A stretch of DNA of 49,795 bases from an uncultured Pseudobdellovibrionaceae bacterium. Lineage in GTDB: Bacteria > Pseudomonadota > Alphaproteobacteria > Micavibrionales > Micavibrionaceae. The stretch covers positions 1 to 49,795 of the forward strand of contig CAYPCP010000001.1 in the NCBI GenBank assembly GCA_964409255.1, written 5' to 3'. Under the pieces are notes generated by a model. It did no database searches. It was not told where the DNA came from and was given only the letters and a program-made list of their open reading frames with translations. The translations under genes were made by a program, and so were the position numbers. This document shows, one piece after another, positions 1-34,124 of the stretch (the stretch's first letter is position 1; every line of letters starts with the position of its first letter).

Positions 1-3000
1 AAACGTTCACGCCTCCCGCCGTTGCGCAGGTGTTGGGAGAGTTGACGATACAAACCAAGCGCTGTGCTGTGTTGCAGGCGAGCATATCTCCCGCCCATCC
101 ATCATGAATCCAGCGGTTTTCGTTTGTTTTATTTGAATTACCGTACAGACCACTATTGCCAGAAGAAGAGTTTTCCCAACCCTCGCAAGTCCAACCGTCT
201 GAATCATCATTTGGTTCATTTTCCCAATAATTTGAAGATCCATAGACGTCGCCGCGATTGGTCCAGTAATTTACGTTTCCACCAAAATATGTTGCCCCGG
301 ACCAATTATTTGCGTTATTGGGGCCCTTACCCATACTGTTTGTTGTAAAGGTCGCCCCGCCGACAGTAGCAGAGCCGGACCTCGCAAATTTATAAGACGT
401 AGAGGGCATAAGGCTGTTGCATTCATCACGACTACAAAGGAAAGCCTTAACTGTTGACGCGTTCAATGTCGCTGAACTTTTTCCAAGCCACGGATTAGCC
501 TGAAGGTCTGCCAAACATTTGTTGTTCGCCCCACTCAGGCCTCCTAAGTTTCCATTCCAGGTGCCAGAGGTCAAAACGAAGTATGGATCTTGACCGCCGC
601 TGCCTGCAAATTCGCAAGAACAAGCGCGTCTTGTGCCAGAGGCGGCCGCCGCTTCTAAGGTAGCCGTGGTTCCGCGTCTTCTTGTGCTTCCGCTTACCTG
701 ACAGCCCATAGTATTGGTTATGTTGCTGGAGTTGCCGCTGCCAGATGCAGAAAGCGCAGTAAGGACAGAACCGCAATTGGCATTGCTCCCCCCGCTACCG
801 GCGTAGGTTACTGTGGGTCCGCTGGCATTGTATGTTCCACCGACCGCGGTACACATGTCACCGCAACCCTGATTGTCTTCGGCTAGGAACCAGCATGCGC
901 CACCCACTTCGACTCCGCCACTTGTAGCGCAGGTGGGTCCTGTGGGCATTGCGGGCGGGTTACAAGCGCAGGCGCGGTGGGCGGTCCCTGATGAGTAAGC
1001 TGCGGTTGTCGTTGCTGTACCGCGATAACGACCTGCGTTTGCTTCGCTAATATAACATCCGCCAGCATTCGATATGGTCGTTGTAGAATTTCCACCGGCA
1101 CCAAATGCGTCCATGATGGCATCGCAATTCGTGTTTAGTCCGCCGCTGCCGCCATAAGACTCGGTGGCTGAATTATATGTGCCGCCAATTCCTGCGCAGA
1201 CGGTCGTACAAGTCTGGTTGACATCGCCAAGGAACCAGCATGCACCACCCACTTCATATCCGCCCGCATACGTACAATCGTTGGTCGATGATGCGTTGCT
1301 CGGGTGTACCATGCACACATAACGGTTGGTAAAGTTACAATATGCAGACTGAGTATTAAATCGGTCGCCATTCGTGTTGTTTGGTCCGCCAAGAAGCCCC
1401 ATGGAGCTCATCGAGCCATCAGTCCAATCCGTACACGAGGAATACAGGCCGCTTCCCGCGCCCCATTTGGTGGAACTGGATGCCAGACGTCCCGACCAAT
1501 AATTACCCGTTGTCCCGAAATGGGTTGCCGAAGACCAGTTATTGGCATTATTGGGTCCGATCCCGCTTGCATCTGCTGTCATAGACGCGCCGCCAGTCGA
1601 CAAACTGCCCATGGCCCCAAAGAAATACTCTTTATTTGGCTTAAGATTGTTGCAAACACTTGGATCGGTGAGCGTATCTGTGCACAGGAATGCTTTAACG
1701 GTCGTGCTGTTTAAGGTTGCGTTAGACTTTCCTTTCCACAATTTTGTTTTGAGGTTTGCAAGACACAGGGAGTTTGCAGCGGCGATCCCTCTGAAGTCAC
1801 CATTTTTAACTGTATCGGAAATTACAAAGTAGCCTGGTGTGGGCACCAAAGGTACATTGCCCAAATCGCAAGCGCAGGCCTGTTGGATGTTGGGTGCGTA
1901 TGCCGAGCAGCTTGTCGTCGGAGACGTTATGCGCGAACGTTCGCCGGATCCGTCCCAGTTGCAAGCCAGTCCAAAATAAGAGGTGCTGTCTGTTACAGAT
2001 CCGCTTCCCGTTTTGCCCAGAGCATTCAGAATGTTAAGGCAATTTGTATTCGATCCACCCGAACCGGCGTAATCTTTGGTGCCGGAAAGGTTGCAGGTAG
2101 AGCCTGCCGCAGAACATGTCTGGTCGCAGCTTTTGTTCGCGCCGGATTTAATCCAGCAGAATCCGCCGATGTATTTCCCGCCTGCTTCTTCGCAAGGGCT
2201 CAATCCAGGGCATGTCCAAGGTTCAATGCTTTTATATGTTCCACTGGTATTTGTGCCGTTCCCCACTGCTACGGGCGTTGAGACATCATACCCTGAACCA
2301 CCGCCCAGATTTCCGCCTGCTGCGGCCCCGCCGCCCCAGCAATATTGTCTGTTATTCGTACCGATGGCGCAGGTGACATAACTTCCTGCCGCGATGTTTT
2401 TATATGTGCCGCTGCTGTTGGCGCCATTCAAAACCAAGGTGGGCGCAAAGGCGGTCGATGTCCCGCCGTTACCAATCCCGCCATACGTATTATTTCCCCA
2501 GCAGTAAGCTTTATCGTCCGTGGCGATACCGCATGAATGAACGTTGCCAGAACTAATTTGTTTGAATGTTGATGGTCCTCCACCATTGGTGGCTGCGACA
2601 GGGGTGATCTGGTCCGTTCCGTATGATCCCGCGAGTAGGCCGCCGCCGCCGCTGCCCCAACAATAAACGTAATCATTCATGCCGATCCCGCAGGTAACTC
2701 CGTCGCCTGTACTGATCTGCTTGTATGTACCCGTTGGGTTGGCACCGTTGCGGGCAAGAACTGGTGAATTTCTTTGGGTTTTGGAATTATCGCCGACTTG
2801 CCCGCTGCCGTTTTTGCCCCAACAATAAACTTTGCTATCCATGCCTAAGCCGCAGCTATGGTCATAGGCAACGCTGATCTGCTTGTATGTGCCCGTGGGG
2901 TTTTCGCCGTTAAGAACGGCAACAGGAGTGGTTCTTGATACAGCGCTGCCATCCCCGATCTGGCCGCCGTCGCCCCGCCCCCAGCAATACGCCTTGCCAT

Positions 3001-5107
3001 TCATATCAAGGCCGCATGTGTGCTGGTTGGCGCTGAGCTGTTTATACGTTCCTGAAGCATTCGCGCCGTTGCTGACCGCCACGGCTGTATGTGTGCTGGT
3101 TGCAGTTCCATCGCCAAGCGCGCCATAATTATGGTCACCCCAGCAATACGCCTTATTATCTGCGCCAATGGCACAGCTATGACCTGTGCCGCCGACGACT
3201 TGCTGGAACATGCCGGACGAGTTGGCGCCGTTCAGGACGGTAGCCGGTGCTGTGCGGTTGGCTGTCGTACCGTCGCCAAGCCTTTGCACTCCCGTTCCTT
3301 GCCTACCCCAACAATATGTTTTGTAATCCGCGCCAATCGCACAAGCATGCGCCCCACCCATCGCGATAATGGGCTTAAAGGCCTTTTCGCATCCTTCGCT
3401 GTCCTCTGATGCCGGGCATGTGCCCGTCGCGGCATCCTGTGATACGGCGCAGAGAAGATAGCGTTGGTTGTTACATTGCTGCGCGCTTCCTTGAACAAAG
3501 CGTCCATCGTCTGTTGAGTTCGCCAATCCATGTACACCCATGTACGATGTCGTACCATCAGTATAACCATTGCATTTGTATGCGTTCGTTGTAGCAAACT
3601 CTGTGTTGTTCCAACCGTTTCCTGTATGTGAACGGTTCATCCAGTAAGTCACGGGTCCTAAAACAGTGCTCCAATTGTCGCTGTTATTGGGACCGAATCC
3701 ATTGCTATCCGTCGTGAAGGGAAGCCCGTACTTAGACGGATCTCCCGAGACAGCGAGGTTGTAAGTTTTGTTGGCACTCAGGCTGTTACATGTCCCGCCT
3801 GCGCAGAAGAATGCCTTGACCGTCGTGCTGTTCAGCGTGACGGCTGATTTCCCTTGCCAGTCATTGGCCTGAAGGTCGGCCAGACATTTCGCGGTTGCTC
3901 CGGCAAGGCCGCCCAGATTTCCGTTCCATGTCGCTGCGGTTCTGACCAGAAAGTGAGAATCCTGTTTTGTTTTCACGCAATTTTCGCATGCCGTTGCCGA
4001 TGAACCTGCCGGCCCGCCGGAAAGGACCGCTGTCTTCGTTCCGACACAGGCATTGGTGCCCGTAACATGAGAGCAGCATGTCGCGCCCGCGTCCTCGCAC
4101 AATGCGGCGCATTGCGATTTGTTGACGCCGCCAGTGTACTGGAACAACACTTGTTGCGGATCAGAGGCGCTGGTGCATGTGTTGCTTTCTACAAATGATG
4201 CATAACACGCGGTTTCAGCCAGCGGCTGTTTAACGCCTTCGGCGACCTGCCGGATGGAAACAGTCAGGTATGTTTCATTTACACCTGCGGCGCTGGCGGC
4301 CCGGCCAAGGCCGTATGCGCCGCCGGTGGTCGTTTCGTAATGCTGTATCTTGATGGTCGACGTACCGCTTAAAACGAACGTGCCGCGAATAACGCTGTGA
4401 GGGCTTTGTCCGCCCGTGGTTCCATTAAGAAGCGCAGTATTGCTCGTCTGATTGAAAAGCCGGGTCCCGACAACGCCGCCGCTGTAAAGGGGGACTGTCG
4501 CGTCGATATAATACGTACCGGCTGGCAAGGAGATGAGGTTCGTCGCCAGGCCTGCGCCAGACACCGTGTTGAGCAGAACGGTGCTCAGCGCATGATCCAC
4601 CCAGCTATTAAGCGCGCCGGAAGCAACGGAGGTGCCCGAAGAACGTTGGTCGATTGCGATAAATATTCCGGGAGTCAGTCCATCCGGGTCATCGGTGGTG
4701 CAATTTACGAGCGTTCCATCACCAACGCACCATTTGCCCGCTGTCAAAGTGCCGACCTGCGGATCTGTTTCCGCTGTGCCCGACAATGAATCAAGATATG
4801 CTTTATTGGCGGCATCCGTGCCGTCTACGGGTGCTCCAAGATTGATGATTTTCGATCCTGCAGCATCAAGGTTTTGTTTGGCTATGTGATTTCCCAAACT
4901 ATCGCCTGAGCCTTCCCCGCCTTCGACGCGGGCCATCCCGATCCAGATCGATCCATTGCAAAACTGCATCAGATTGCTGGTGGAATTATAAACCTGATCG
5001 CCTTCAAGACCGGCAGGATTGTCGCAAGCGGCGTATGCAGGGTTTGCGATAGCAAGCCCTATGAATGTAAAAACAACAGCTAAAAATTTTATTTTCAAAC
5101 CTTGCAT
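1..5107 (-). CDS. Giant secreted mosaic fibre/adhesin-like protein, N-terminal 1702 codons (C-terminus beyond the left window edge); absent from the supplied ORF track
   Basis: Manual minus-strand translation from ATG (cat at 5105-5107) is open for all 1702 codons down to nt 2. No listed minus-strand ORF uses this frame (end coordinate = 1 mod 3) in 1-5107. The track evidently omits ORFs with no stop inside the window. N-terminus MQGLKIKFLAVVFTFIGLAIANPAYA/ACDNPAGLEGDQVYNSTSNLMQFCNGSIWIGM is a signal peptide plus the Cys motif shared with the next two genes. Then: LGNHIAKQNLDAAGSKIINLGAPVDGTDAANKAYLD (tail-fibre collar-like); LPAGTYYIDA module; seven YCWG-centred RCC1-like repeats (about nt 2228-3376); three F(L/V)V..(T/K)(W/.)NGNLGGL.GA..KCLADL modules (DUF1554/endostatin-like; about 3443-3955, 1307-1834, 44-586); three Cys-rich ~105-aa modules (1868-2215, 962-1276, 614-931), with a fourth starting at the edge. 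Confidence 0.85.
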   Translation of the reverse strand, partial: MQGLKIKFLAVVFTFIGLAIANPAYAACDNPAGLEGDQVYNSTSNLMQFCNGSIWIGMARVEGGEGSGDSLGNHIAKQNLDAAGSKIINLGAPVDGTDAANKAYLDSLSGTAETDPQVGTLTAGKWCVGDGTLVNCTTDDPDGLTPGIFIAIDQRSSGTSVASGALNSWVDHALSTVLLNTVSGAGLATNLISLPAGTYYIDATVPLYSGGVVGTRLFNQTSNTALLNGTTGGQSPHSVIRGTFVLSGTSTIKIQHYETTTGGAYGLGRAASAAGVNETYLTVSIRQVAEGVKQPLAETACYASFVESNTCTSASDPQQVLFQYTGGVNKSQCAALCEDAGATCCSHVTGTNACVGTKTAVLSGGPAGSSATACENCVKTKQDSHFLVRTAATWNGNLGGLAGATAKCLADLQANDWQGKSAVTLNSTTVKAFFCAGGTCNSLSANKTYNLAVSGDPSKYGLPFTTDSNGFGPNNSDNWSTVLGPVTYWMNRSHTGNGWNNTEFATTNAYKCNGYTDGTTSYMGVHGLANSTDDGRFVQGSAQQCNNQRYLLCAVSQDAATGTCPASEDSEGCEKAFKPIIAMGGAHACAIGADYKTYCWGRQGTGVQRLGDGTTANRTAPATVLNGANSSGMFQQVVGGTGHSCAIGADNKAYCWGDHNYGALGDGTATSTHTAVAVSNGANASGTYKQLSANQHTCGLDMNGKAYCWGRGDGGQIGDGSAVSRTTPVAVLNGENPTGTYKQISVAYDHSCGLGMDSKVYCWGKNGSGQVGDNSKTQRNSPVLARNGANPTGTYKQISTGDGVTCGIGMNDYVYCWGSGGGGLLAGSYGTDQITPVAATNGGGPSTFKQISSGNVHSCGIATDDKAYCWGNNTYGGIGNGGTSTAFAPTLVLNGANSSGTYKNIAAGSYVTCAIGTNNRQYCWGGGAAAGGNLGGGSGYDVSTPVAVGNGTNTSGTYKSIEPWTCPGLSPCEEAGGKYIGGFCWIKSGANKSCDQTCSAAGSTCNLSGTKDYAGSGGSNTNCLNILNALGKTGSGSVTDSTSYFGLACNWDGSGERSRITSPTTSCSAYAPNIQQACACDLGNVPLVPTPGYFVISDTVKNGDFRGIAAANSLCLANLKTKLWKGKSNATLNSTTVKAFLCTDTLTDPSVCNNLKPNKEYFFGAMGSLSTGGASMTADASGIGPNNANNWSSATHFGTTGNYWSGRLASSSTKWGAGSGLYSSCTDWTDGSMSSMGLLGGPNNTNGDRFNTQSAYCNFTNRYVCMVHPSNASSTNDCTYAGGYEVGGACWFLGDVNQTCTTVCAGIGGTYNSATESYGGSGGLNTNCDAIMDAFGAGGNSTTTISNAGGCYISEANAGRYRGTATTTAAYSSGTAHRACACNPPAMPTGPTCATSGGVEVGGACWFLAEDNQGCGDMCTAVGGTYNASGPTVTYAGSGGSNANCGSVLTALSASGSGNSSNITNTMGCQVSGSTRRRGTTATLEAAAASGTRRACSCEFAGSGGQDPYFVLTSGTWNGNLGGLSGANNKCLADLQANPWLGKSSATLNASTVKAFLCSRDECNSLMPSTSYKFARSGSATVGGATFTTNSMGKGPNNANNWSGATYFGGNVNYWTNRGDVYGSSNYWENEPNDDSDGWTCEGWENSSSGNSGLYGNSNKTNENRWIHDGWAGDMLACNTAQRLVCIVNSPNTCATAGGVNV

Positions 5108-5132: not shown

Positions 5133-6059
5133 TTATGGTTCCGGTGTAGAGGAGATTTTCTTGATATAGATAGTAGATACGATGTCATCACCTGCGCCAA
5201 CGCCGATACCCAAATCGTTGTTTCCTGAATTCGTTGTGCCGTAATAATACTGAAGATCGATTGTGCCCGGCGCTTCCATATTGACATAGCCGGATGCGCG
5301 GCTATGGCCTGTTACGGCAAGCATGTAGATGGTCGTTCCATCTATGACCGGTGTTGATGTGTTTTTGACGATACGCGCCCGCGCATATTTTGCAATGCCA
5401 TAGAAAGCGGAATAGGCATCAATATAGTAACGGCCAACCGGAAGAGAGATGCTGCCGCTCGACAATGTAACGCCGGTAAGACCTTCGCAGGTTATGTTCG
5501 TCATGCTTCTTTTGGTCCATGCCGCAGATACGGCGGTTCCGCCATTACCGGCGGTTGGTATTGTCTGTATCGCTACGCATATTCCTCGCGGCGTAGCGCT
5601 AATCGCGGGCGGATCTGAGGTACAGACAATTTTCTCTCCGGCGGCGTCGGATTTACACCATTTTCCATTCGTTAAAGTTCCCACTTTGGGGTCGGCTTCC
5701 GATGTGCCGGTGCGCGCGTCGACGTAAGCTTTGGTTACCGCATCGCCTGGATCGGAAGGCGTGCCAAGATTAATCACCTTAAACCCGCCCATATCAAGAT
5801 TCTTGATTGCGGTGTGGTTGCCGAGGTCGTCAGGCCGCGGCTTAACAACCACACTCCCGTCCATCGATATCCAGTCGGCGCCGTCGCAAAACTGCATAAC
5901 ATTTTCTGTTGAGTTGTAAATCTGCGATCCTTCCGTTCCGATAGGCCCGCTGCAATTCGCGTAGGAAGAGGTCGGCGCACAGACAAGCAATCCCGCAATC
6001 GCTATAAGCGTTTGCAGTAATGGCTGTACCTGTCTGTGCTTTTCTACCATCTCGTCCAT
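5133..6059 (-). CDS. Short secreted fibre-like protein (minimal paralog of the two giant neighbours)
   Basis: 308-aa ORF; its ATG lies 3 nt after the upstream stop (6063). Hydrophobic N-terminus, then CSGPIGTEGSQIYNSTENVMQFCDGADWISM, DDLGNHTAIKNLDMGGFKVINLGTPSDPGDAVTKAYVDARTGTSEADPKVG..KWC (collar-like), and a C-terminal module LPVGRYYIDA...IDLQYYY...STIYIKKI shared with 1..5107 and 6063..10502. Confidence 0.8.
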   Translation of the reverse strand: MDEMVEKHRQVQPLLQTLIAIAGLLVCAPTSSYANCSGPIGTEGSQIYNSTENVMQFCDGADWISMDGSVVVKPRPDDLGNHTAIKNLDMGGFKVINLGTPSDPGDAVTKAYVDARTGTSEADPKVGTLTNGKWCKSDAAGEKIVCTSDPPAISATPRGICVAIQTIPTAGNGGTAVSAAWTKRSMTNITCEGLTGVTLSSGSISLPVGRYYIDAYSAFYGIAKYARARIVKNTSTPVIDGTTIYMLAVTGHSRASGYVNMEAPGTIDLQYYYGTTNSGNNDLGIGVGAGDDIVSTIYIKKISSTPEP

Positions 6060-6062
6060 CGG

Positions 6063-9000
6063 TTAATTTATTTTCTCTATCTTAAGAATGCCGTACGTTT
6101 CCGGCCCCGCAGCGTTCGGCATGCCGAACGGGGTGGGATCGGTCGAAGGTGTTCCGCTGATCAACACGGTCTGAAGTTTAATTGTGGCGGTCGACGATAA
6201 TGTGAATATTCCGCGCACATAGCTGTAAGTGATATGCCCCATCATAGGGGGAACAACGCCGGATCCGTTATAAGAAGGTGTTCCAGTGGCAAGAACGGCA
6301 CCGGCACTTGAATTGTACAAGCGGGCCTTTGCCGAACCATTCCGGGCAAACGGAACAACAGCATCGACATAATATTTTCCAGCAGGAAGCCTGATACCGC
6401 CATCGGTCATGATAATCTCCAGACTGTTTTGTCTGAGACGGTTTAGCGGATAATCGTACCAAGTTCCCGGTGTCATGCCGGTGGCCAGTCCTGCTGAACT
6501 GCCTTGAGTTTTTTCGCGCGCAGCAATCACAGTAAGCGGTGTTTCAGTGCCGCCAATGCTGGTCGCTGGTCCGCTTGGCGGGGCGACGGCGCAGAGAAGA
6601 TAATGTCCTGTGCTGCAAATAATACCACCTACGGGCTGCTCCCAGCGCGCGCTGTTGTTATAATTAGTGGCAATACCTGTCCCGCCTTTTTCAGGTCCGG
6701 TTGCGTTGGTCCAGTTACTGCAATGTGCAGTATTCGGTCCCGCTCCCCATTTTGTGCTTGTTCCCGTCGCGCGGTTTGTAAAGAAGCGACCGCTGTGCTG
6801 CGTTAATGCTTCTGTGTCTCCACCCCACGCATTTGAATCGTTCGGGCCAAGACCAGCGGCATCCGTCGTAAATGATTTACCCCCCTGAGTAGGTTCATCC
6901 GCCGCGGCAAAGGTATATTTTGTGTTGGGGGCGAGATCCTGACAAGTCGTGCTGTCGCAAAGCCATGCTTTGACTGTCGAGCTATTCAACGTAGCTTCGG
7001 ATTTCCCCTTCCAGTCAAAATCCTGAAGATCATCCAGACATTTCTGATTTGCTCCGGAAAGCCCGCCCAAATTGCCGGTATAAAGCCGCCTGCCCAGTAC
7101 AAAATATCCCGTTGGCCCGCTATCCGGATCTTTGTCGCAATTGATGACGCCGGAATTGGTCGCACACCATTTGCTTGCAGTGACAGCGCCAATCTTGGGA
7201 TCGGTTTCATTCGTGCCAGTGCGTGCGTCGATATACGCCTTGGTCGCGATATCCGTACCTGCCGACGGCGCACCCACATTGATGATGCGGTTGTTGTTCA
7301 TATTGATGTCTTTTGTCGCGGTATGATTCCCGAGATCGTCACCACCGACTTTACAAGCGCAGGCGCGCTGCACGCCGGCGGTGGCGGATAATTCCGTCGT
7401 CGCTAACGTCCCTCTGTAACGCAACGATCCGCTCAAGTAACAACCATGCGCGTTCGACGCGTTGGCGGCCGTCGTGCCTGCGGCGCCGAGCGCCGTCATG
7501 ACCGCCTGACAATTGGCTGCGTTACCGCCGCTCCCGGCATAGGTCAGTGTCGTATCATCATAAAGTCCGAAATTATCTTCGCATACTTTTTTGCAGCTAC
7601 GCCCGTTTCCGCCCAAGAACCAGCACGCATTGCCAACAAAATCACCTTCGGCATTGTCGCAACGCTCTTCCGCCGTTATATCGACGCTGCCGGTGCCAGC
7701 GCCATCGCCGAAAAATCCTGAACTTGCGCCGTTGGCGACTTTTGTCGGCACATTGCGGCTAATATTGTTGCCATCGCCAATTGAGTAATTTCCGCCACCA
7801 CCCCAGCAATACGCTTTGTTGTCGCTGGCAATGCCACAGACCGTACTACTGCTGCTGCTTTCTATGGTCCTGAAGCCTCCCGAGCTTTCGCCATTTAAAA
7901 CGGCGACCGGTGTAGGGCTGTCAACATTCGTGCCGTTGCCCAATGACCCTTGCGAGCCCATGCCCCAGCAATAGACTTTGTTATCAGTGCCGATAGCGCA
8001 CGTCTGCGCTTCCCCGGCAGTTATTTCTTTGTAGGTCCCGGGACCTTCGCCATTATTTACCAGCACTGGAATCAGACTATCCGCTGCAGGCCCTGTTGTG
8101 CCTAGCTGGCCACTAGAGTCGCTACCCCAACAATATGCTTTATCATCGGTACCAATGGCGCATGTATGTCCTTGACCGGTCGCAATTTTTTTAAACGTTC
8201 CTGGCGACGCGCCATTCAGGACAAGTGTCGGCGGCCCGCCTGCGGTTTGTGTTGTTGTATTATTTCCTAATTGTCCGCTGGAATTATAACCCCAGCAATA
8301 GGCTTTATTATCTGTACCAATCGCGCAGTGGCTGGCGGTTGAAGTAGATCCTAGATATTTGTATGTTCCTGCAGCATTCGCGCCATTTGAAACCACGCGT
8401 GGTACGGCGCTGCTTCCACCCGGACTTCCCATACCCCATGTCAAACCCCAGCAGTAAACTTTATTGTCAGTTGCAAGGCCGCAGGCTGTGTAAGCCGAAA
8501 CGGATAAAGATGTAAACGTTCCCGGCGATCCGCCGTTTTGAACCAATACGGGTTTATGGCTTGTAACGCCCTCGGCATTGTTTCCCAGTTCACCGTAATT
8601 GTTTAATCCGCCCCAGCAATATGTACTGTTGTTTGTATGTATGGCGCAGGTCTGATAATCAGTTTCGATAAGTTTATAGCTGTTGGAGACGTCCTCGCTT
8701 GATACTTCCACCGCCGTCGCTCTGTTCGTGGTGGTGTTGTCACCGACCGTACCTCGTGCGTTATAACCCCAGCAATAAGCCTTTCCGTCCGTGCCTATGG
8801 CGCAGCTTGTCTGACTCCCAGTCGATATTTTACCACGCTCCATAAGGGCGTTGCTTTCGCCGCCACTTGTGTCGGGGATCTGCTTCATACACCGCAAAAT
8901 TCTTGATGTACCAGTTCTGTTGCTGTTCCCCTTTGCGCCGTCGCTAAAACGTTGAATGACTTGGTTGATGGCATTTTCAGTTGAAGACCAGTAATAAGTT

Positions 9001-10502
9001 CCCGTCGTATTGATTCCCAGTGCGCTAAGATCAAGCAGGCCGCCTTGAGTTGTGCTATTTATCCAAAGAAGATTAAGTTCATCTTCAGATGGTATGTTCC
9101 ATTCCGCGCCAACAGTTCTACAATTACTGGCAGCAGGGTGCGAACCAGCGCCAGCTGCAATCATAGCATCCGTATTAACCTTGCCGTCGGTTGTTCCTGT
9201 CGTGCCTGGAGTTGATGTATTTACCGTCTTTAGGGTAACGCTGGCTGTTTCTTGATTACGCATTAAAATGCGGTTTGCACCGATTTTACCGATGTAAATG
9301 GAGCCATCGCTGCAAGCGGAGCCAATCGCACCCGTTGTGCAGTCACTGGTGCCACCACTTTCGCTGGTTCCGCAATCTTTGATATAAAGACCACCCCCTG
9401 GGCGACCTGCAAACATGACATTGCCATCACCAGAAACTGTGCCGCTGAACCATTGGCCTGTTCCCAGAATTGTTTCTTCATTCCATGCCACGCCACCATT
9501 AACGGAGGTAAAATATTTTTGACCACTGCCGCCTCCGCCCGCAATTAACGTCATGCCATCGTCAGATGAACTAAGGATGTTCCACGTCTGTACAGGAGAA
9601 TTAGTTTGTTCTGACCAAGTATCCCCCCCATCTGTAGAGGTGAATAATTTCTCACCGCTAGCGCCCGCGATAAGACGCATACCATTGGCTGAAGAGGCAA
9701 CTACTGCCCAGCTTTTGTTCCCGGCTGTAGGGCGTGTCGTCCATGTGTTTCCACTGTCTGTCGATATATAAATATAGTTAGTGCCTGCTGCGATAACTCT
9801 CTGACCGTTGGCAGACATTGCAAGACTTTTCCAAAAACCGGAACCGGGGTTGGACAATGCCGTCCAATTATCCCCACCATCCGTTGATCGGTATATAGTT
9901 CCGCTACCAGCTCCTGAATTTGTTGCATAGATGATTTGGCCGTTCGGTGACATCGTGATGGCATTGAAGCGTCCCGAGGGCGCACCGCCACCAGAGATCA
10001 TTGTCCAATTTTTTCCTGAATCGATTGAACGATAAAGTCTTCCGGCTACGGCGCTATTTCCTGCGATAACTCTCACCCCATCTGCGGAGCTTGCCAAGGG
10101 ATACCACTGCGAAGCACTGCCTCCAGAGTCAGGTGGCGCCCATGATTGCCCTCGATTCGTAGAAACGGCGAAGTCAGAACCATTGGCAGCAGCAACAATC
10201 TTTGATCCATCGGTAGAGGATGCGATACCACGCCAGACTCGCGTACCAAGTGAGGTTACTTCTTCCCATTCACAACTGCCTCCCCCGCTGCCACCGCTGC
10301 CGGGAAGGCCCAGCGAATTCCCCCACATCGGGATCCATTTTGCGCCGTTGCAATATTGCATGACTTTGGATGTGGAATTGTAAATCTGGTCGCCGGCGTA
10401 CCCGGTCGGGCCAGAGCATGCGGCCAGCGCTTCGCGCGTTGGCGATCCCAACGCAAGCAGCATGATCAGGCTCAGTGCCCCTCCCGCGGCGAGGAGGCGC
10501 AT
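6063..10502 (-). CDS. Giant secreted mosaic protein: BNR/Asp-box propeller + DUF1566-like + 7x RCC1-like + Cys-rich module + tail-fibre collar + DUF1554/endostatin-like + C-terminal beta-module
   Basis: Track ORF is 6063..10595. I prefer ATG 10502 (MRLLAAGGALSLIMLLALGSPTREALAA/CSGPTGYAGDQIYNSTSKVMQYCNGAKWIPM), 4 nt after the upstream TAA (10507-10509). Six Asp-boxes spaced ~42-45 aa (STNRGQSW, SIDSGKNW, STDGGDNW, STDSGNTW, STDGGDTW, SVNGGVAW; about 9381-10274). EWNIPSEDELNLLW...YYWSSTE...SRILRCMK is DUF1566/Lcl-C-like (8880-9323). Seven YCWG repeats of ~52-55 aa period (7716-8828). Cys-rich module 7353-7661. DDLGNHTATKDINMNNNRIINVGAPSAGTDIATKAYIDARTG at 7146-7340. YFVLGRRLYTGNLGGLSGANQKCLDDL...HYLLCAV at 6588-7109. 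LPAGKYYVDA...ILKIEKIN at 6066-6548. Confidence 0.9.
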   Translation of the reverse strand: MRLLAAGGALSLIMLLALGSPTREALAACSGPTGYAGDQIYNSTSKVMQYCNGAKWIPMWGNSLGLPGSGGSGGGSCEWEEVTSLGTRVWRGIASSTDGSKIVAAANGSDFAVSTNRGQSWAPPDSGGSASQWYPLASSADGVRVIAGNSAVAGRLYRSIDSGKNWTMISGGGAPSGRFNAITMSPNGQIIYATNSGAGSGTIYRSTDGGDNWTALSNPGSGFWKSLAMSANGQRVIAAGTNYIYISTDSGNTWTTRPTAGNKSWAVVASSANGMRLIAGASGEKLFTSTDGGDTWSEQTNSPVQTWNILSSSDDGMTLIAGGGGSGQKYFTSVNGGVAWNEETILGTGQWFSGTVSGDGNVMFAGRPGGGLYIKDCGTSESGGTSDCTTGAIGSACSDGSIYIGKIGANRILMRNQETASVTLKTVNTSTPGTTGTTDGKVNTDAMIAAGAGSHPAASNCRTVGAEWNIPSEDELNLLWINSTTQGGLLDLSALGINTTGTYYWSSTENAINQVIQRFSDGAKGNSNRTGTSRILRCMKQIPDTSGGESNALMERGKISTGSQTSCAIGTDGKAYCWGYNARGTVGDNTTTNRATAVEVSSEDVSNSYKLIETDYQTCAIHTNNSTYCWGGLNNYGELGNNAEGVTSHKPVLVQNGGSPGTFTSLSVSAYTACGLATDNKVYCWGLTWGMGSPGGSSAVPRVVSNGANAAGTYKYLGSTSTASHCAIGTDNKAYCWGYNSSGQLGNNTTTQTAGGPPTLVLNGASPGTFKKIATGQGHTCAIGTDDKAYCWGSDSSGQLGTTGPAADSLIPVLVNNGEGPGTYKEITAGEAQTCAIGTDNKVYCWGMGSQGSLGNGTNVDSPTPVAVLNGESSGGFRTIESSSSSTVCGIASDNKAYCWGGGGNYSIGDGNNISRNVPTKVANGASSGFFGDGAGTGSVDITAEERCDNAEGDFVGNACWFLGGNGRSCKKVCEDNFGLYDDTTLTYAGSGGNAANCQAVMTALGAAGTTAANASNAHGCYLSGSLRYRGTLATTELSATAGVQRACACKVGGDDLGNHTATKDINMNNNRIINVGAPSAGTDIATKAYIDARTGTNETDPKIGAVTASKWCATNSGVINCDKDPDSGPTGYFVLGRRLYTGNLGGLSGANQKCLDDLQDFDWKGKSEATLNSSTVKAWLCDSTTCQDLAPNTKYTFAAADEPTQGGKSFTTDAAGLGPNDSNAWGGDTEALTQHSGRFFTNRATGTSTKWGAGPNTAHCSNWTNATGPEKGGTGIATNYNNSARWEQPVGGIICSTGHYLLCAVAPPSGPATSIGGTETPLTVIAAREKTQGSSAGLATGMTPGTWYDYPLNRLRQNSLEIIMTDGGIRLPAGKYYVDAVVPFARNGSAKARLYNSSAGAVLATGTPSYNGSGVVPPMMGHITYSYVRGIFTLSSTATIKLQTVLISGTPSTDPTPFGMPNAAGPETYGILKIEKIN

Positions 10503-10506
10503 CCTG

Positions 10507-11829
10507 TTACCGGTCCTGTTTAAGTGCATCGATATCTTTCCGCAGCGTTGCATTTTCGTCCCTGAGCTGCTTGACGGCTTCGATGAGAGGCGCAATCAAC
10601 TGGTCGTATTCCACAGACTTCACGCCGTTGCTGTCGGTTGCGACGGCCTCGGGCATAACGGTTTCAACATCCTGCGCGATCACGCCGAAGGCGGGCGCGC
10701 CGTTTCTTTTCCAGACGTAATGTTTCCCGTGGATGGCATCGAGCAGGGTGAACGGGTCTGCGATGTCGGTGATTTTATCTTTCAGGTTTCGGTCGGAGGA
10801 GTGCAGGTACGCCGCCGCCGTCACCGTGTCAGCGCCCAGAACCTTGAAGCCGGACATGTTCAAATCCTGCGTCGCGGTATGATCGCCGAGATTGTCGGAG
10901 CCGCCACCGCCGCCACCGCCGCCGCCCGAGGCGCCGCCTTCCGGCGGGTCGCCGGGAATAAGCGGGAAGCGTAACGGCGAATCCATCGCGACCGTGCCGT
11001 TAAGCGTTTTGGATTGAATGGAATCGGTTTTGATCGCCATGAATTCCCCGATCCCCTGTTCGCTGTCGAGGCTGAAGCTGACGACGCCGCTGCTGTCGCG
11101 GACCTCAAGGTCTTTTTGAATCTGCGCCGTGTTGGAATCGCCCGATTTCAAATTCCACAGACCGCCGCCCGCGCTGTTCGCTTCGGCATAGGTGTAGCTA
11201 TGGATGACGTCGTCCGATCCCGGCACGCGGATCAATGTCGGTTCGTTGTCTTCGACCACGCCGTTTCCGTTCCCGGCGGCGTCGGCCGCGGCGGCGGAAA
11301 TACAGCTTGTCTGGAATTGTCTGTCAGGACCGGCGGAGATAACCGCGATGGAAATAAGGTTTTGCTGGTTGGCGCCGGCGAGGCGGTGATTGGTGCCCGG
11401 CGGGCTTTCGCATGCGGCCTGCATGGTCGCGGTGCCGTGGTCCCATACGCAGTACCCGTAACGGTTCTGCCACGGATCCTGCAACGACGCGCCGATCGAC
11501 GCGGGCAGGTGACCCCCGCCGCTTGGCGCCGGAAGACTCGACGCCGGTTCGAACATCACGGGTTCGATCATCGTGTCGTTGTCGCAATCCCCGCCATCCG
11601 CGCCCGCGGTCGCGCCCATCACGGCGAGTTTTGATGAGGCCATCATATTGTTTTCGGCAATGGTGCGCTTGGTCACTTCGGACATGCTGCGCACGGGGCC
11701 TTTCATGATCTGCATCGACGCAGCGCCGACAGCCCCGACCAGGGCCACGGCCCCGAACATGGTGAAGAAAATATTCCCTGACTGGCTGTCTCTCAAGCCA
11801 TTGATAAGGCTGAAAATCCCCTTGCCCAT
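10507..11829 (-). CDS. Pilin-like N-terminus fused to a tail-fibre-like stalk and a C-terminal peptidase-S74 intramolecular chaperone domain
   Basis: 440-aa ORF with AAGGAG 7 nt upstream of the ATG. N-terminal ..SQSG/NIFFTMFGAVALVGAVGAASMQIM hydrophobic helix, plus DPWQNRYGYCVW and ISAGPDRQFQT (GspG/pseudopilin-like motifs). Gly8 run, then DNLGDHTATQDLNMSGFKVLG (collar-like). The end SSDRNLKDKITDIADPFTLLDAIHGKHYVWKRNGAPAFGVIAQDVETVMPEAV...VEYDQLIAPLIEAVKQLRDENATLRKDIDALK matches the endosialidase/tail-fibre chaperone (S-DRxLK autocleavage site) as I remember the family. Confidence 0.9.
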   Translation of the reverse strand: MGKGIFSLINGLRDSQSGNIFFTMFGAVALVGAVGAASMQIMKGPVRSMSEVTKRTIAENNMMASSKLAVMGATAGADGGDCDNDTMIEPVMFEPASSLPAPSGGGHLPASIGASLQDPWQNRYGYCVWDHGTATMQAACESPPGTNHRLAGANQQNLISIAVISAGPDRQFQTSCISAAAADAAGNGNGVVEDNEPTLIRVPGSDDVIHSYTYAEANSAGGGLWNLKSGDSNTAQIQKDLEVRDSSGVVSFSLDSEQGIGEFMAIKTDSIQSKTLNGTVAMDSPLRFPLIPGDPPEGGASGGGGGGGGGSDNLGDHTATQDLNMSGFKVLGADTVTAAAYLHSSDRNLKDKITDIADPFTLLDAIHGKHYVWKRNGAPAFGVIAQDVETVMPEAVATDSNGVKSVEYDQLIAPLIEAVKQLRDENATLRKDIDALKQDR

Positions 11830-12096
11830 CCGTTGCTCCTTCGGCGAGGCCGCCCCTGACTGACGGCTAAAACCCTCTTATCCCTTAACAATTCTGACAC
11901 GGATGTATTTAAATAAAATTAATACTATCCGGGTGTGCAAGAGAGACGGAAGGCTTATGTATTTGATAAATAAATAAAAACTTAGAGGACCTAAAAGAAT
12001 CGCGAAATCGTTAACGCAAAAAGGAAAATGCGTTTCGACTACGCCTGACGCCTAGTCTATCAAAGAAACAGCCTGTGGAAAAGTCTTTGGAACGGC

Positions 12097-25914: not shown

Positions 25915-26445
25915 ATGCCGGGACGCATGATTCGGGGTTTCACAGACATTTTTTCTGGTTCTACACTCGCGCTGATTGGCGCGGTGTGTGCCGTTGGCCT
26001 TGCCGGGTGCGAACCCATCAAGCGCGATCCGCAGGTTGTCGCGACGCCGGATAAGGTTTCGCTCATGATGGCGGAAGCCGCGGACAAGGCCTCCAACGCC
26101 CTTGAAACGCTGGCCGCCGTCGAACAAAACAAATCGCCGGGCGTCGCCGTCCAGCCTATTCACAACGCGCCGCCGGAACTGCAGCGCGCCGTGACGGTGA
26201 ACTGGGTCGGCCCGCCGGAACAGGTCACGAAAACGCTCGCCGAACGCGCCAGCTATTCTTTTATCGCTGTGGGGAATCGCCCGCCGGTGCCGCCGATCGT
26301 GAATATCGACGTTGAAGGCGAACCGGTTATCGACGTCCTGCGCGACGTCGGCCTGCAGCTCGGCGTGCGCGGCGACATCAAGGTCGACAGCGTCCGCAAA
26401 ATCATTGAACTTCATTACGCGCCGGTGACCGGGCTGGGGGGCTGA
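25915..26445 (+). CDS. dotD: Type IVB secretion lipoprotein DotD (TraH-like)
   Basis: Lipobox LAGC. The C-terminal VTVNWVGPPEQVTKTLAERASYSFIAVGNRPPVPPIVNIDVEGEPVIDVLRDVGLQLGVRGDIKVDSVRKIIELHY parallels Legionella DotD (...VDWSGPIEELTARIAKAAHFRFRVLGKSPSVPVLISISTKDESLAEILRDIDYQAGKKASIHVYPNSQVVELRY, from memory). Confidence 0.9.
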   Translation: MPGRMIRGFTDIFSGSTLALIGAVCAVGLAGCEPIKRDPQVVATPDKVSLMMAEAADKASNALETLAAVEQNKSPGVAVQPIHNAPPELQRAVTVNWVGPPEQVTKTLAERASYSFIAVGNRPPVPPIVNIDVEGEPVIDVLRDVGLQLGVRGDIKVDSVRKIIELHYAPVTGLGG

Positions 26446-26449
26446 CCGT

Positions 26450-27301
26450 ATGCGCTCGCCATTCGCTCCGCGTTTTCTCCTGACATTGATCGCCGCTCTG
26501 GCGATCGGTGCCGTTGCATGCGCGGGCGCGGCGTCGGCGTCGCTTCTGGATGATGCGGATGATCCGCCGCCGCCATCGCTCAGCGAACTGCAATCCCTGC
26601 CCAAGGAAAATAAAAACATCGAAAGCGGCATGCCGATCGATATTCGCGGCGACGCGATGAAAGAATCCGCGCTGTCTTATGGCGCCCGTGGCGGTCTTGC
26701 GTGGCGCACGTTTGAAATTCGTCAGGAAATGGAAACCCGCGCCCGTTACATGGACAAGGTGTTCGATTTCCGCCAGCTGTTGATCCCCGCGCAATCGGGC
26801 CTGCTGATCGAACCGCCGGTAATCTCCGAACAGCTCGATGCGATGATCATCGATTCAAGCGGTCAGAACGCCGCCGTGGCGGATCAGGTGCTTAATATCG
26901 GCCGCAATGCCCGCATCGTTTCCGCGCCGCGCACATGGCGTGCCTATCTGGAACGCCAATGGGGCGATGTTTCGCCGCCGCCCGATATCCTGCGTCCTGA
27001 AAACCCGCTGGAACGCGATCAATGGAATGCCGCCGTTGCCGAAGGCTGGAAAGCCGGCGTTCAACAGGCCGATGATATTTTCCAAACCGATCTGAATAAA
27101 CTGGTTGCCGATTACCAAGGGATGATCCGGTATCGCACCCTTCTTTCCCAGGGCATGGTATCGCCGCCTTATGCGCTTCAAACCGACCGCGGTGTCACCG
27201 GCGGCGGTAGCGAAATGCGCGTTGGCGACCGTGCCTTGACCATCACCGCGCCCCCCGCCCTCAAGCCCCAGTATAATCAATGGTCGCCCGCAGACCGATA
27301 A
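26450..27301 (+). CDS. dotC: Type IVB secretion lipoprotein DotC (TraI-like)
   Basis: N-terminal signal with Cys (AIGAVAC). ALSYGARGGLAWR, LLIEPPVISE, RTWRAYL, MIRYRTLLSQGMVSPPYALQTDRGVTGGGSEMRVGDRALTITAPPAL parallels Legionella DotC (..MILYRKLLAMNMVSPPYVSHTDLGVTGDGSEIHIDDRVLRITALPEL, from memory). It starts 4 nt after the dotD stop. Confidence 0.92.
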   Translation: MRSPFAPRFLLTLIAALAIGAVACAGAASASLLDDADDPPPPSLSELQSLPKENKNIESGMPIDIRGDAMKESALSYGARGGLAWRTFEIRQEMETRARYMDKVFDFRQLLIPAQSGLLIEPPVISEQLDAMIIDSSGQNAAVADQVLNIGRNARIVSAPRTWRAYLERQWGDVSPPPDILRPENPLERDQWNAAVAEGWKAGVQQADDIFQTDLNKLVADYQGMIRYRTLLSQGMVSPPYALQTDRGVTGGGSEMRVGDRALTITAPPALKPQYNQWSPADR

Positions 27302-28449
27302 GCCTTCTTAAATCGAAGGACAGCGTCGCCGAAACATGGATCGATGAACCCACGCGGTTTACCGATGCGCATGTCGATCCGTTCATTCTGTGGTGCGTGA
27401 AGAAAAACTCGTCCGATATTTCCATCCAGACCGACCGGCCGATTTACAACGAAATTTACGGCACGCTCTATCCCGGCACGTTCCGCCCGATCGACGCGGC
27501 CGACATGGGCGTGTTCCTGCATAAAATTTACGGGCCGGATGCCACTGCGCGTCTGGCGTCGGGAACCGATCTCGATCTGTCTTACGAAATCCGCCCCGAT
27601 CGTTATACGCGCGTGCGCTTTCGTGTGAACGTTACGCCGATCCTGTCCCGTGGCCGTGATTCTGCGCAGATCACAATGCGCGTCCTACCCAGCGAACCGC
27701 CGACGATGGAAGATCTCAACGTCGAAGAGGCGATTATCAAGGCCTGGAATCCGCGGCAGGGCATGGTCGTTATCACCGGCCCGACGGGTTCGGGGAAAAC
27801 CACGCTGCTTGCCGCCGGTATCCGCATGTTGATCGAGCGCAAGCGCGGGGCCGGAAAAATCGTCTGTTACGAAGCGCCGATCGAATATGTGTATGACGCG
27901 ATCAAATCGCCGCGCTCCCTGATTTCACAAACTGAAATTCCGCGCCACCTGCCGGACTTCGCCCGCGGCGTGCGCAACGCGCTGCGCCGTAAACCGAACA
28001 TCATCCTGGTGGGTGAGGCGCGGGACAAGGAAACGATTTCCGCCGCGATCGAAGCCTCGCAAACCGGCCACACCGTGTATACGACGACCCACACGGTCGG
28101 CGTGTCCGCGACGATCCAGCGTATGGTCGCCACCTTCGATCCGGGCGAGCGTTCCGAACGCGCGTACGCGCTCATGGAAACGATCCGCCTGATCGTGACC
28201 CAGACGCTGGTGCCGAAGGTTGGCGGGGGCCGTCTGGGCGTGCGGGAATGGATGGTGTTCTCGGACGAGGTCCGCGATAAATTCCTGTCCATGGACTTCA
28301 AGCTCTGGCCCGCCGAGATCCAGCGTATTATCCAGTTCAACGGCCGCACCATGGCCAATTCCGCCGGTATCGCCTTCGATGCCGGATTAATCGACCGCCG
28401 CACTTATATTATGCTATCATCGAGTACGGGCGCCGGTGGCGGCGATTAA
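27280..28449 (+). CDS. dotB: Type IVB secretion ATPase DotB (PilT/TraJ-like)
   Basis: IDEPTRFTDAHVDPF, ITGPTGSGKTTLLAA (Walker A), SQTEIPRHLPDFARGVRNALRRKPNIILVGEARD, TGHTVYTTTHT. Near-colinear with Legionella DotB as I remember it. Overlaps the dotC 3' end by 22 nt. Confidence 0.95.
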   Translation: MVARRPISLLKSKDSVAETWIDEPTRFTDAHVDPFILWCVKKNSSDISIQTDRPIYNEIYGTLYPGTFRPIDAADMGVFLHKIYGPDATARLASGTDLDLSYEIRPDRYTRVRFRVNVTPILSRGRDSAQITMRVLPSEPPTMEDLNVEEAIIKAWNPRQGMVVITGPTGSGKTTLLAAGIRMLIERKRGAGKIVCYEAPIEYVYDAIKSPRSLISQTEIPRHLPDFARGVRNALRRKPNIILVGEARDKETISAAIEASQTGHTVYTTTHTVGVSATIQRMVATFDPGERSERAYALMETIRLIVTQTLVPKVGGGRLGVREWMVFSDEVRDKFLSMDFKLWPAEIQRIIQFNGRTMANSAGIAFDAGLIDRRTYIMLSSSTGAGGGD

Positions 28450-28470
28450 CCTTTTCCATCAGGGGCTTGT

Positions 28471-28770
28471 ATGGGCGTCAGAGAAGATACAGAAGAAGAA
28501 CGGGTCAACTGGCACTGGCGGAATACCATGCGCCCGGTCCGCTTTTTCGGCCTTGATGCCCGCGCCGCGTGGCCGTTTTGTGTGCTTTTGGTCTATTTCC
28601 GTCCGATTTCCCTGTTTCTGACCATCGTGATTACGGTCGTCTTCGTCCAACTGGAACGAAAAGGCCTGTCCTTCGATTCCGCTCTGCGCGCGTTCCGGAA
28701 CTGGATATTGGGCCAGCGCCGCCCGGCCTGGTTGTCCGTGCGCCGCCGCCGCATGGTCGATTACGGCTAA
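28471..28770 (+). CDS. icmT: Type IVB secretion protein IcmT (TraK-like)
   Basis: 99 aa. HWRNTMRPVRFFGLDARAAWPFCVLLVYFRPISLFLTIVITVVFVQLERKGLSFDSALRAFRNWILG parallels the IcmT/TraK pattern HWRDSAR..KFF..DA.AAFPLLLFLLHI..WTF....LER.....VFLRWLR. Confidence 0.8.
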   Translation: MGVREDTEEERVNWHWRNTMRPVRFFGLDARAAWPFCVLLVYFRPISLFLTIVITVVFVQLERKGLSFDSALRAFRNWILGQRRPAWLSVRRRRMVDYG

Positions 28771-28871
28771 AATCCGCCAGAAAATCATCCCCTTGAGTCT
28801 TGTCATTTGGTGCGTGCCGTTCTATCGTGCGGCTATTCTTTCAGCCGCCAAAAATTCAAGGGATGTGCCGC

Positions 28872-34021: not shown

Positions 34022-34079
34022 AAATCCGTGCCTTTCGACGTTCCGGGGCCGCACCGTACGGCCCTTCGAAAGGGATAAA

Positions 34080-34095
34080 TGCAAGGATGGTGCCA
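34080..34095 (-). promoter_or_regulatory. Sigma54 (-24/-12) promoter upstream of flgK
   Basis: The minus strand reads TGGCAC-CATCC-TTGCA, matching the TGGCAC-N5-TTGCW consensus at every position. It lies in the 103-nt gap between the stop of 34125..36095 and the flgK ATG, leaving a ~50-nt leader. Confidence 0.65.
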
Positions 34096-34124
34096 GTCCG
34101 GCGGGCGGCCCGGGTCCCGGGGCC

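Follow-up and report, generated by a model that had tools for sequence, protein, structure and literature searches.

A conserved, GspG-like N-terminal module joined to a tail-fibre collar and a phage-type S74 chaperone in a Micavibrio-centred family of cellular proteins

Introduction

Peptidase_S74 domains joined to type IV pilins have already been pointed out by bioinformatics, as modular type IV pilins with the IPR012902-IPR030392 architecture (Raynaud et al., 2021, PMC8179133). The predatory bacterium Bdellovibrio recognises and holds its prey by a family of tail-fibre-like trimers, the mosaic adhesive trimer (MAT) fibres, which comprises S74 subfamilies, with an SDxxxK motif, as well as non-S74 subfamilies (Caulton et al., 2024, PMC10769870). 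CofB and TcpB are presented as homotrimeric minor pilins located at the tip of type IVb pili (PMC6048534, PMC5207764). Here, we analyse a 440-residue protein encoded in a DNA stretch of 49,795 nucleotides (contig CAYPCP010000001.1, positions 1 to 49,795; the window hereafter means this whole stretch) from an uncultured Pseudobdellovibrionaceae bacterium. This protein, hereafter the target, is composed of an N-terminal module, a Gly-rich linker, a short tail-fibre collar and a C-terminal S74 chaperone domain (Table 1).

A preliminary description of the same DNA had recognised in the target a pilin- or pseudopilin-like N-terminal half fused to a collar and a self-cleaving chaperone. The open reading frame (ORF) that it reported and every motif that it quoted are present, including SSDRNLK at residues 344-350. 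Its statement that no pilin-to-S74 fusion had been described is wrong, given the IPR012902-IPR030392 proteins and two metagenome proteins, P0093 (476 residues) and P0097 (752 residues), which are genuine canonical prepilin-S74 fusions: in both, the N_methyl model scores above its curated cut-off at residues ~6-29, and the C-terminus is a Peptidase_S74 domain homologous to that of the target (E 1.7e-8 and 7e-8, respectively). The pilin-S74 architecture (PMC8179133) and the S74/non-S74 mosaic fibres of Bdellovibrio (PMC10769870) being thus already known, what is new is the anchor module, whose family is large, unannotated, GspG-like, without the Glu+5 of pilins, centred on Micavibrio and linked to invertases and to type IV secretion systems (T4SS). 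No published description of it was found in the full-text literature searched for 'Micavibrio' together with 'tail fiber'.

Results

A widespread N-terminal module with a pilin-like conservation pattern

The N-terminal module (N-module) of the target is shared by 64 of the 101 proteins matched through a word index, and an exhaustive hidden Markov model (HMM) search extends the family to 1,111 clusters (50% identity) at E<=1e-3, with 721 clusters at E<=1e-30 and a weak tail of 169 clusters between E 1e-3 and 1e-10. The N-module always lies at the extreme N-terminus of proteins that range from 238 to 6,785 residues, the target being one of the shortest forms. The modules found behind it are interchangeable and, at the C-terminus, mostly trimeric or adhesive: S74 (15 of 61 relatives), C1q, YadA head, Gp34 trimer, T7 tail fibre, TSP1, Lcl_C, Hint and Gly-rich modules. 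In three relatives (P0034, P0054 and P0058), the C-terminal part matches positions ~203-309 of the PilV 'Shufflon_N' model, towards its C-terminus, and the target has no match to this model (PF04917).

In the GTDB species genomes, 108 relatives were found, mostly in Micavibrio or in metagenome-assembled genomes labelled 'Pseudobdellovibrionaceae', often in several copies per genome; the other carriers are Hyphomicrobium, Mesorhizobium, Nitratireductor, Stappia, Brucella gallinifaecis, Falsochrobactrum, Stella and Aquamicrobium. Falsochrobactrum ovis DSM 26720, Brucella gallinifaecis and Stella vacuolata are carriers available in culture. Against these 108 genome loci, a single relative was found in the 2.9 million viral contigs of IMG/VR. 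The family is cellular, not viral. The sole 'viral' contig with an N-module (L084, IMGVR_UViG_3300037313_002204) has a relaxase, a type IV coupling protein (T4CP), ArdA, Fic and a recombinase in common with L083, the locus of a conjugative element, and its classification as viral is probably a mistake, the contig being rather a conjugative element itself.

A motif search in which Gly-1, Gly+14 and Gly+26-Pro+27 were compulsory gave 141 unique N-termini with the consensus R-x-x-[QE]-[SR]-G | [NS]-[VI]-F-F-x-L-F-[GA]-A-V-A-[LM]-V-G(+14)-x-x-G-...-[KR]-G-P, in which the boundary is preceded by Q/E at -3, S/R at -2 and G at -1. Gly-1, Gly+14 and the Gly-Pro pair are invariant in an independent alignment of 19 sequences as well. 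With its short basic leader, its Gly at -1 and the hydrophobic stretch of ~20 residues that follows, this N-terminus has the form of a class III signal peptide. In the target (..SQSG18|N19-I-F-F-T23), +1 is Asn19, +14 is Gly32 and +5 is Thr23, in agreement with the preliminary description, which had pointed out a Thr in place of the canonical Glu; the only strongly hydrophobic segment of the protein covers residues 20-38 (19-residue Kyte-Doolittle mean 1.97).

The mean frequency of the top residue is 0.65 in the hydrophobic segment, 0.71 in the core motifs and 0.25 in the leader. Because the hydrophobic segment is conserved like the core and the leader is not, the pattern seen in the alignments is that of a pilin and differs from that expected of a Sec signal peptide. 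With a layout that may be likened to that of pilins, the AlphaFold2 model of residues 1-290, built from a 61-sequence alignment (predicted local distance difference test, pLDDT, of 85), shows a predicted 56-residue helix (residues 20-75) and then a beta-rich head. The latter bears a GDCDxDxxxEP motif at residues 80-90 and four Cys, at positions 82, 127, 140 and 176.

The start 'R-G-N-V/I' recalls the N-termini of TadG-type proteins; this lead was discarded because no Tad-family HMM matched. A PDB match to NuoJ (E 5.2) was likewise set aside as a chance hydrophobic similarity.

Likeness to GspG in profile-profile comparison

The family alignment was compared by hhalign with a template of 124 GspG sequences anchored on the PDB-verified PulG and EpsG. 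The alignment obtained covers 56 columns with a score of 33.1 (local P 3.7e-4, hhalign probability 36%), to be compared with a mean of 13.1 (standard deviation 2.4, maximum 21.7) for 150 column-shuffled templates, a Gumbel fit to which suggests P ~1e-5. Four motifs are collinear in it, DPWxxxY, hhSxGPD, (S/N)DD(I/V) and then a Trp, the third one being aligned to the NDDI loop of GspG, which we take to be its calcium-binding loop. In a separate comparison limited to the N-terminal segments, which is not significant on its own, Q-x-G|.. is aligned with Q-R-G|FTLLE, Gly-1 with Gly-1 and Gly+14 with Gly+14. With the four PDB-verified GspG sequences as a first template, the DPW motif alone had been aligned, and the final template profile is narrow (effective number of sequences, Neff, 2.3) because the homologue search gave sequences of >=74% identity. 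The apparent likeness to GspG exceeds chance at the profile-profile level only.

A C-terminal S74 chaperone with its catalytic dyad

At the other end of the target, Peptidase_S74 (PF13884) is the Pfam match of residues 345-396 (E 2.2e-11; 44.3 bits, the cut-off being 22). The stretch ~315-440 is covered by alignments to over 25 PHROG families of tail fibres or baseplates (E down to 2e-29), beginning at ~315-335, and phmmer against PDB sequences gave 6f45, the distal subunit of a phage long tail fibre, in which SSDRRIK is aligned to SSDRNLK. In the full-length AlphaFold2 model, the S74 domain (~351-440) reaches a pLDDT of ~90 or more and ends with a long helix (409-439), and Foldseek relates this model to ICA (intramolecular chaperone auto-processing) domains, namely 7dc3 (MyRF; E 1.8e-5, probability 1.00), 3gw6 (endosialidase) and 3gud. 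The proposal that the C-terminal ~100 residues form an intramolecular chaperone is thus borne out by Pfam, by the PHROGs and by Foldseek, the Peptidase_S74 HMM search that had been suggested as a check giving a match above cut-off.

The S-D-x-x-x-K motif of such domains has been defined in work on MAT fibres and on MyRF (PMC10769870; PMC8326128). MyRF is cleaved at P586|S587, and only in the trimer, its S587/K592 being equivalent to S911/K916 of endoNF (PMC8326128), and the counterpart residue in Bd3182 is S782 (PMC10769870). The target has this motif as S345-D-R-N-L-K350, that is, with a Ser345/Lys350 dyad of the same spacing as those of MyRF and endoNF. Since the ICA precedents are cut on the N-terminal side of the catalytic Ser, the scissile bond is predicted to be S344|S345 (..YLHS344|S345DRNLK350), and the computed masses of the resulting fragments are 35.0 kDa (residues 1-344) and 10.7 kDa (residues 345-440). 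As regards the cleavage proposed beforehand, the S74 motif is retained, and the site, which had been placed just before DRNLK, has to be moved one residue upstream by ICA precedent. The linker (297-311) and the collar (312-344) are the sole stretch between the N-module and the chaperone, and are disordered in the monomer model.

The target gene opens an operon of variable secreted proteins

The target gene is the first of four minus-strand operon genes located downstream of secB, the genes upstream of it being secB, fxsA, a Tim44-like gene and mltA. The start of gene 2 (MQRCGKISMHL..) overlaps the stop-proximal 47 nucleotides of the target gene (10507-10553); the corresponding overlap is also of 47 nucleotides at locus L080 and of 23 at L003, which implies a translational coupling between the two genes.

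The products of the downstream genes share a common N-terminal organisation. In the window and at L003, L080 and L081, 12 out of 12 such proteins begin with a signal peptide having an AxA site, which is followed by C-x-x-P-x-G-x-x-G-x-Q-x-Y-N-x5-M-Q-[YF]-C-[ND]..W and then by the module 'LGNHTA...DA.TKAYVD...ETDP.VG....KWC'. Genes 2-4 of the window encode, after this module, RCC1 or BNR propellers and other domains. The two-Cys motif of these proteins has no Pfam match; in some family members, the Cys-loop sits straight after the N-module. A lipoprotein anchoring of the products of genes 2-4 was ruled out, their signal peptides being of the AxA|xC type with no lipobox.

L003, L080 and L081 have the same order as the window, with secB, the conserved S74 gene, three variable secreted genes and dnaQ, and their target orthologues, in the same place, are 62-79% identical to the target. 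An equivalent four-gene arrangement is found at another locus, in L082. In all four cases, variability is confined to the downstream genes, the first one being conserved. The position next to secB is kept in divergent genomes, at 13 loci or more, whose SecB has an identity of only 40-52%. The target gene is thus an old chromosomal resident and not a prophage gene.

Table 1. Coordinates of the target, its parts and associated features (positions in the window or, for the last eight rows, in the named locus)
Feature	Position	Strand	Remarks
Target, whole ORF, 440 residues	10507..11829	-	stop codon 10507-10509; single ORF at these coordinates
Shine-Dalgarno AAGGAG	11836..11841	-	read from the sequence; 7 nucleotides 5' of the target ATG
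Leader, residues 1-18 (MGKGIFSLINGLRDSQSG)	11776..11829	-	variable, basic; ends in the family-invariant Gly18
Conserved hydrophobic segment, residues 19-43 (NIFFTMFGAVALVGAVGAASMQIMK)	11701..11775	-	invariant Gly44-Pro45 directly after
Predicted continuous N-terminal alpha-helix, residues 20-75	11605..11772	-	AlphaFold2: helix 20-75 and 20-74 in the two models
Beta-rich head of the N-module, residues 76-290	10960..11604	-	no Pfam, PDB or BFVD match
DPWQNRYGYCVWDHG, residues 118-132	11434..11478	-	aligned by hhalign to GspG DPWGxxYQLLSPGxxG
ISAGPDRQFQT, residues 164-174	11308..11340	-	aligned by hhalign to GspG (D)IFSLGPDG; S165 and G167 invariant
GSDDV, residues 204-208	11206..11220	-	aligned by hhalign to GspG ..NDDI..; D206 and D207 invariant
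Gly-rich linker, residues 297-311 (EGGASGGGGGGGGGS)	10897..10941	-	pLDDT <50 in the monomer model
Tail-fibre 'LGxHTA' collar of 33 residues, 312-344 (DNLGDHTATQDLNMSGFKVLGADTVTAAAYLHS)	10798..10896	-	module shared with genes 2-4 and with relatives
Peptidase_S74/ICA domain, residues 345-440	10510..10797	-	Ser345 at 10795-10797; Lys350 at 10780-10782
Gene 2, ~1,496 residues, Sec-secreted	6063..10553	-	BNR/sortilin-like and RCC1 propellers, internal LGNHTA module
Gene 3, 308 residues, Sec-secreted	5133..6059	-	N-terminal Cys-loop motif, LGNHTA module
Gene 4, >1,700 residues, runs off the window	1..5107	-	Sec signal, same N-terminal Cys-loop and LGNH module, RCC1 repeats
TraI/DotC (PF16932, E 4e-80)	26450-27301	+	Dot/Icm-like gene
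DotB-like ATPase, T2SSE family	27280-28449	+	beside DotC
TrbI/DotG-like gene	46237-47676	+	Dot/Icm-like gene
Inverted repeats, L053 (same in L057)	9661-9678 / 9792-9809		
Inverted repeats, L031	9592-9605 / 9730-9743		
Inverted repeats, L063	9580-9595 / 9722-9737		
DotA/TraY paralogues, L014	911-9374		
DotA/TraY paralogues, L019	1103-9654		
DotA/TraY paralogues, L023	1040-9691		
DotA/TraY paralogues, L021	1-5679		
DotA/TraY paralogues, L013, L018, L020, L038			

Invertases next to the relatives and other genes of the window

A homologue of a serine recombinase of ~200 residues is present in 20 of the 84 loci of relatives, typically directly upstream of the family gene and divergent from it. In several of these loci, inverted repeats of 14-18 nucleotides bracket 113-126 nucleotides, ~150 with the repeats themselves, between the divergent recombinase and the start of the family gene (Table 1), and suggest a promoter switch that is invertible in the manner of Hin. 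The presence of serine invertases beside the relatives further suggests a surface structure under selection. A shufflon-style inversion of C-terminal cassettes was considered at locus L001 and rejected, no convincing inverted repeats being found downstream of the homologue. In the window, no recombinase adjoins the target gene.

The Dot/Icm-like genes of the window (Table 1) belong to two plus-strand regions, 25915-30408 and 44784-49496, in which the flanking ORFs have no family matches. Between these regions, 31571-43828 comprises a minus-strand gene encoding a FlgK-like hook-associated protein of 837 residues (31571-34084) and then five ORFs of 656, 487, 456, 939 and 696 residues, with no Pfam match at E<=1e-5 and with a strong AT skew.

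Discussion

The target as the putative base of a trimeric surface fibre

Starting from the observed domain composition, catalytic dyad, family-wide conservation pattern and operon structure, we tentatively favour the reading in which the target is a conserved subunit that forms the base of a surface fibre, on the side of the cell, and its N-module, of 270 residues, a strongly diverged derivative of the fold of type IV pilins and GspG. The single N-terminal hydrophobic helix would insert the preprotein into the inner membrane, leaving the remainder, with its four conserved Cys, outside the cytoplasm. If the S74 chaperone works as elsewhere in its family, it would join three chains, fold the LGxHTA collar into a trimer and then cut itself off at S344|S345 by means of the Ser345/Lys350 dyad. 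A mature protein of ~33-35 kDa would be left, forming as a trimer of pilin-like modules the base of the fibre. The N-module could let this trimer leave the membrane and occupy, in the manner of CofB and TcpB, the tip of a filament or of a secretion apparatus whose genes lie elsewhere, and export could take place through a type IV filament machine or through a T4SS-linked route involving DotA/TraY. The three co-transcribed, variable, Sec-secreted proteins that share the collar might be exchangeable distal or adhesive parts docking on this base; in longer paralogues of the target, the adhesin is fused straight to the same anchor.

Several results weigh against a pilin origin of the N-module. Residues 1-300 of the target match no Pfam or NCBIfam model even at E<=1, N_methyl, T2SSG, TadE/Tad and Shufflon_N included, and no pilin, pseudopilin, Tad or Shufflon model matches the N-module region of the 61 relatives at E<=0.01. 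In particular, the N-terminal methylation HMM (PF07963/IPR012902) matches neither the target nor these relatives at the same respective thresholds, and does match the positive controls P0093 and P0097. The PHROGs scan gave nothing for the N-terminal half of the target, and PDB sequence searches for this half, started from the target alone or from the family profile, gave no pilin and nothing else beyond the NuoJ match set aside above. For the N-module model, Foldseek gave no PDB match at E<1 and no BFVD match at E<=0.001 (best 0.18), and with neither this model nor the full-length one, which matched ICA domains only, was a pilin fold found in the PDB. When hhalign was restricted to the helix, the comparison with GspG was insignificant, 1 of 100 shuffles equalling the score. 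Glu+5 is present in none of the 141 unique N-termini, which have A, T, M, V, L or I at +5, and Asn or Ser at +1. The predicted cleavage would leave a fibre part of only 33 residues. Finally, the genomic neighbourhood is not that of a pilin: in the 1.24 Mb flanking the 84 loci and in the window, there is no canonical prepilin motif, no GspG homologue and no T2SSE ATPase; no pilus gene is a conserved neighbour of the family; and in the window, no pilin partner or assembly machinery was found apart from the DotB-like ATPase beside DotC. The recurrent neighbours are instead DotA/TraY, relaxase/T4CP genes and invertases, and not genes of type IV pili (T4P) or type II secretion systems (T2SS).

The N-module fails to enter the curated pilin families. 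Taking both sides together, we nevertheless find it rather probable that it is a very diverged derivative of the pilin fold, in a remote, sub-threshold relationship to known pilins. From the claim of a pilin- or pseudopilin-like N-terminal half, the layout and the collinear GspG motifs are kept, and the HMMs, the fold, the residue at +5 and the neighbourhood go against it; the preliminary description had itself taken the lack of any significant pilin or pseudopilin profile hit for this half as refuting its proposal, and read literally, this is the outcome of those searches. As to the residue at +5, the N-module may be likened to GspK, which we take to be a tip pilin devoid of Glu+5. A trimeric fibre anchored by a pilin-type helix is, as a hypothesis, the best available reading.

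Type IV secretion as a possible context of the family

The strongest alternative, although an unlikely one in our view, is that the target belongs to a T4SS-associated envelope fibre and is no pilin at all. The hydrophobic segment would then be a permanent signal-anchor, or a helix fitting into a partner in the membrane, for example a DotA/TraY-like protein, the head would bind a component of a T4SS or conjugation system, the GspG motifs would be convergent or vestigial, and the variable adhesins would be positioned for contact with prey or recipient. As judged from the genomic associations of the relatives, the context is one of type IV secretion and conjugation more than one of T2SS or T4P. 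In eight Micavibrio loci, one to three tandem DotA/TraY paralogues of ~900-1,030 residues (TIGR04346, E 2.7e-67 to 4.7e-80) abut the family gene, amid housekeeping genes and with no other Dot/Icm gene nearby; the family members found there have 440-498 residues and end in a Cys-rich domain of ~90 residues, with no S74. A relaxase and/or a T4CP lies within 10 kb of the family gene in seven loci (five each), and ArdA/KlcB in others. The window itself contains the TraI/DotC, DotB-like and TrbI/DotG-like genes, and the absence of linked T4P or T2SS genes and of any pilin HMM or fold match is what this alternative would lead one to expect. However, the window has no DotA homologue, and its type IVB secretion system (T4BSS) genes are at least 14 kb away from the target gene, with housekeeping genes in between. 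The adjacency to DotA may moreover represent one conserved island in one genus. This alternative also leaves unexplained the invariant Gly-1 at the leader boundary and the collinear GspG motifs, and an anchor in the inner membrane alone cannot place an adhesin on the surface of a diderm cell. In the published genome of Micavibrio ARL-13, no T4SS is reported, and pil genes and prepilin-type proteins are (PMC3189940).

A broader reading, which we regard as doubtful, combines the two contexts. The N-module would be a hitherto unrecognised branch of the pilin fold lacking Glu5, and would anchor, throughout a family of over 1,000 clusters, trimeric adhesins tipped with tail fibres and coupled to type IV secretion. 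The family would be a functional analogue of the R64 PilV shufflon and set the range of prey or recipients, and the target would be a minimal, conserved base for the docking of the three downstream proteins. The coupling, in such a scheme, would be through the DotA/TraY paralogues in predatory Micavibrio, and through relaxase/T4CP elements and invertase switches in Hyphomicrobiales and relatives.

Sec-secreted fibre or phage remnant

It is improbable, though less so than a phage origin, that the target is a trimeric fibre secreted in the ordinary way by Sec, like the MAT fibres of Bdellovibrio, with a cleavable signal peptide (e.g. ..VGAA37|S) and an N-domain binding non-covalently to a cell-surface element. 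The architectures are indeed parallel: a conserved N-domain is combined with variable tips, S74 or not, paralogues are numerous and the host is a predator (PMC10769870). A small-x-small motif (G-A-A) does follow the hydrophobic core, and the three neighbouring genes have classical AxA signal peptides. The layout of the MAT fibres is different, with a beta-rich N-domain of ~130 residues behind the signal peptide (PMC10769870). Besides, the hydrophobic segment of the family is conserved like the core motifs and continuous with a conserved helix extending to residue 75, and the boundary Gly-1 is invariant. Signal peptides, on the other hand, are usually little conserved.

A prophage or tailocin tail-fibre remnant with a fortuitously hydrophobic N-terminus, which the matches of the C-terminal 125 residues to dozens of phage tail-fibre families might evoke, is extremely improbable and was rejected on the gene context (no phage genes around, position downstream of secB in at least 13 divergent loci) and on the viral-contig scan, whose only N-module relative carries a relaxase and a T4CP like L083, the N-module having in addition no BFVD match.

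Significance

Because the family of the target is modular, comparable in size to that of the MAT fibres, concentrated in genomes like that of the epibiotic predator Micavibrio and also present on conjugative elements, with an anchor that is different and unannotated, it provides a concrete candidate for the recognition of prey or recipients. If the N-module is a degenerate pilin, type IV filament subunits would occupy more sequence space than IPR012902-based surveys can reach, and the target would represent a testable case in which a phage-type chaperone matures a homotrimeric fibre at a pilus tip. Should the anchor act with DotA/TraY instead, a type IVB secretion system would for the first time have an adhesin module tied to it.

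Comparison with known systems

The pilin-S74 fusions P0093 and P0097 have the same plan as the target, with a helix-anchored N-terminal carrier, a linker or fibre part and a C-terminal Peptidase_S74 domain. These fusions, known from sequence, carry G|FTLIE as a canonical class III signal and are recognised by the N_methyl HMM. The target family is not recognised by it; its N-termini read G|N-I/V-F-F, and Glu+5 is lacking. GspG/PulG (PF08334; PDB 5wda, 1t92, 3g20 and 3fu1) resembles the target by a basic leader ending in -Q-x-G, by Gly+14 and a long alpha1, predicted in the target, and by the DPWxxxY, hhSxGPD, DDI and W motifs, collinear in hhalign. The target differs from it in having a head about three times larger, with long insertions, in lacking Glu+5, in being encoded outside a gsp operon and in carrying a fibre collar and an S74 domain, and its N-terminal half has no HMM, PDB-sequence or Foldseek match.

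The likeness to CofB and TcpB is one of concept: a pilin module, a flexible linker and a trimerising C-terminal region at the pilus tip. CofB and TcpB have canonical prepilin N-termini, are encoded in a pilus operon and trimerise without any S74 chaperone, and no sequence similarity to the target was found in the PDB set, where their structures should be present.

With R64 PilV (PF04917), the family has in common a constant N-terminal anchor, interchangeable receptor-binding ends, a link to conjugation or T4BSS, and site-specific recombinases; in P0034 and P0054, a segment even matches Shufflon_N (~207-309). The family is nevertheless unlike PilV in that its recombinase is a small upstream serine invertase, which probably acts as a promoter switch, rather than Rci shuffling C-terminal ends.

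Finally, like the MAT fibres, the family is found in a predatory bacterium and combines one invariant, cell-proximal N-domain with mosaic tips. To judge from the published description of MAT fibres, the two differ at the base of the fibre, which is made of a cleavable signal peptide and a beta-rich N-domain of ~130 residues in Bdellovibrio, and of a conserved hydrophobic helix and a head of ~215 residues in the target.

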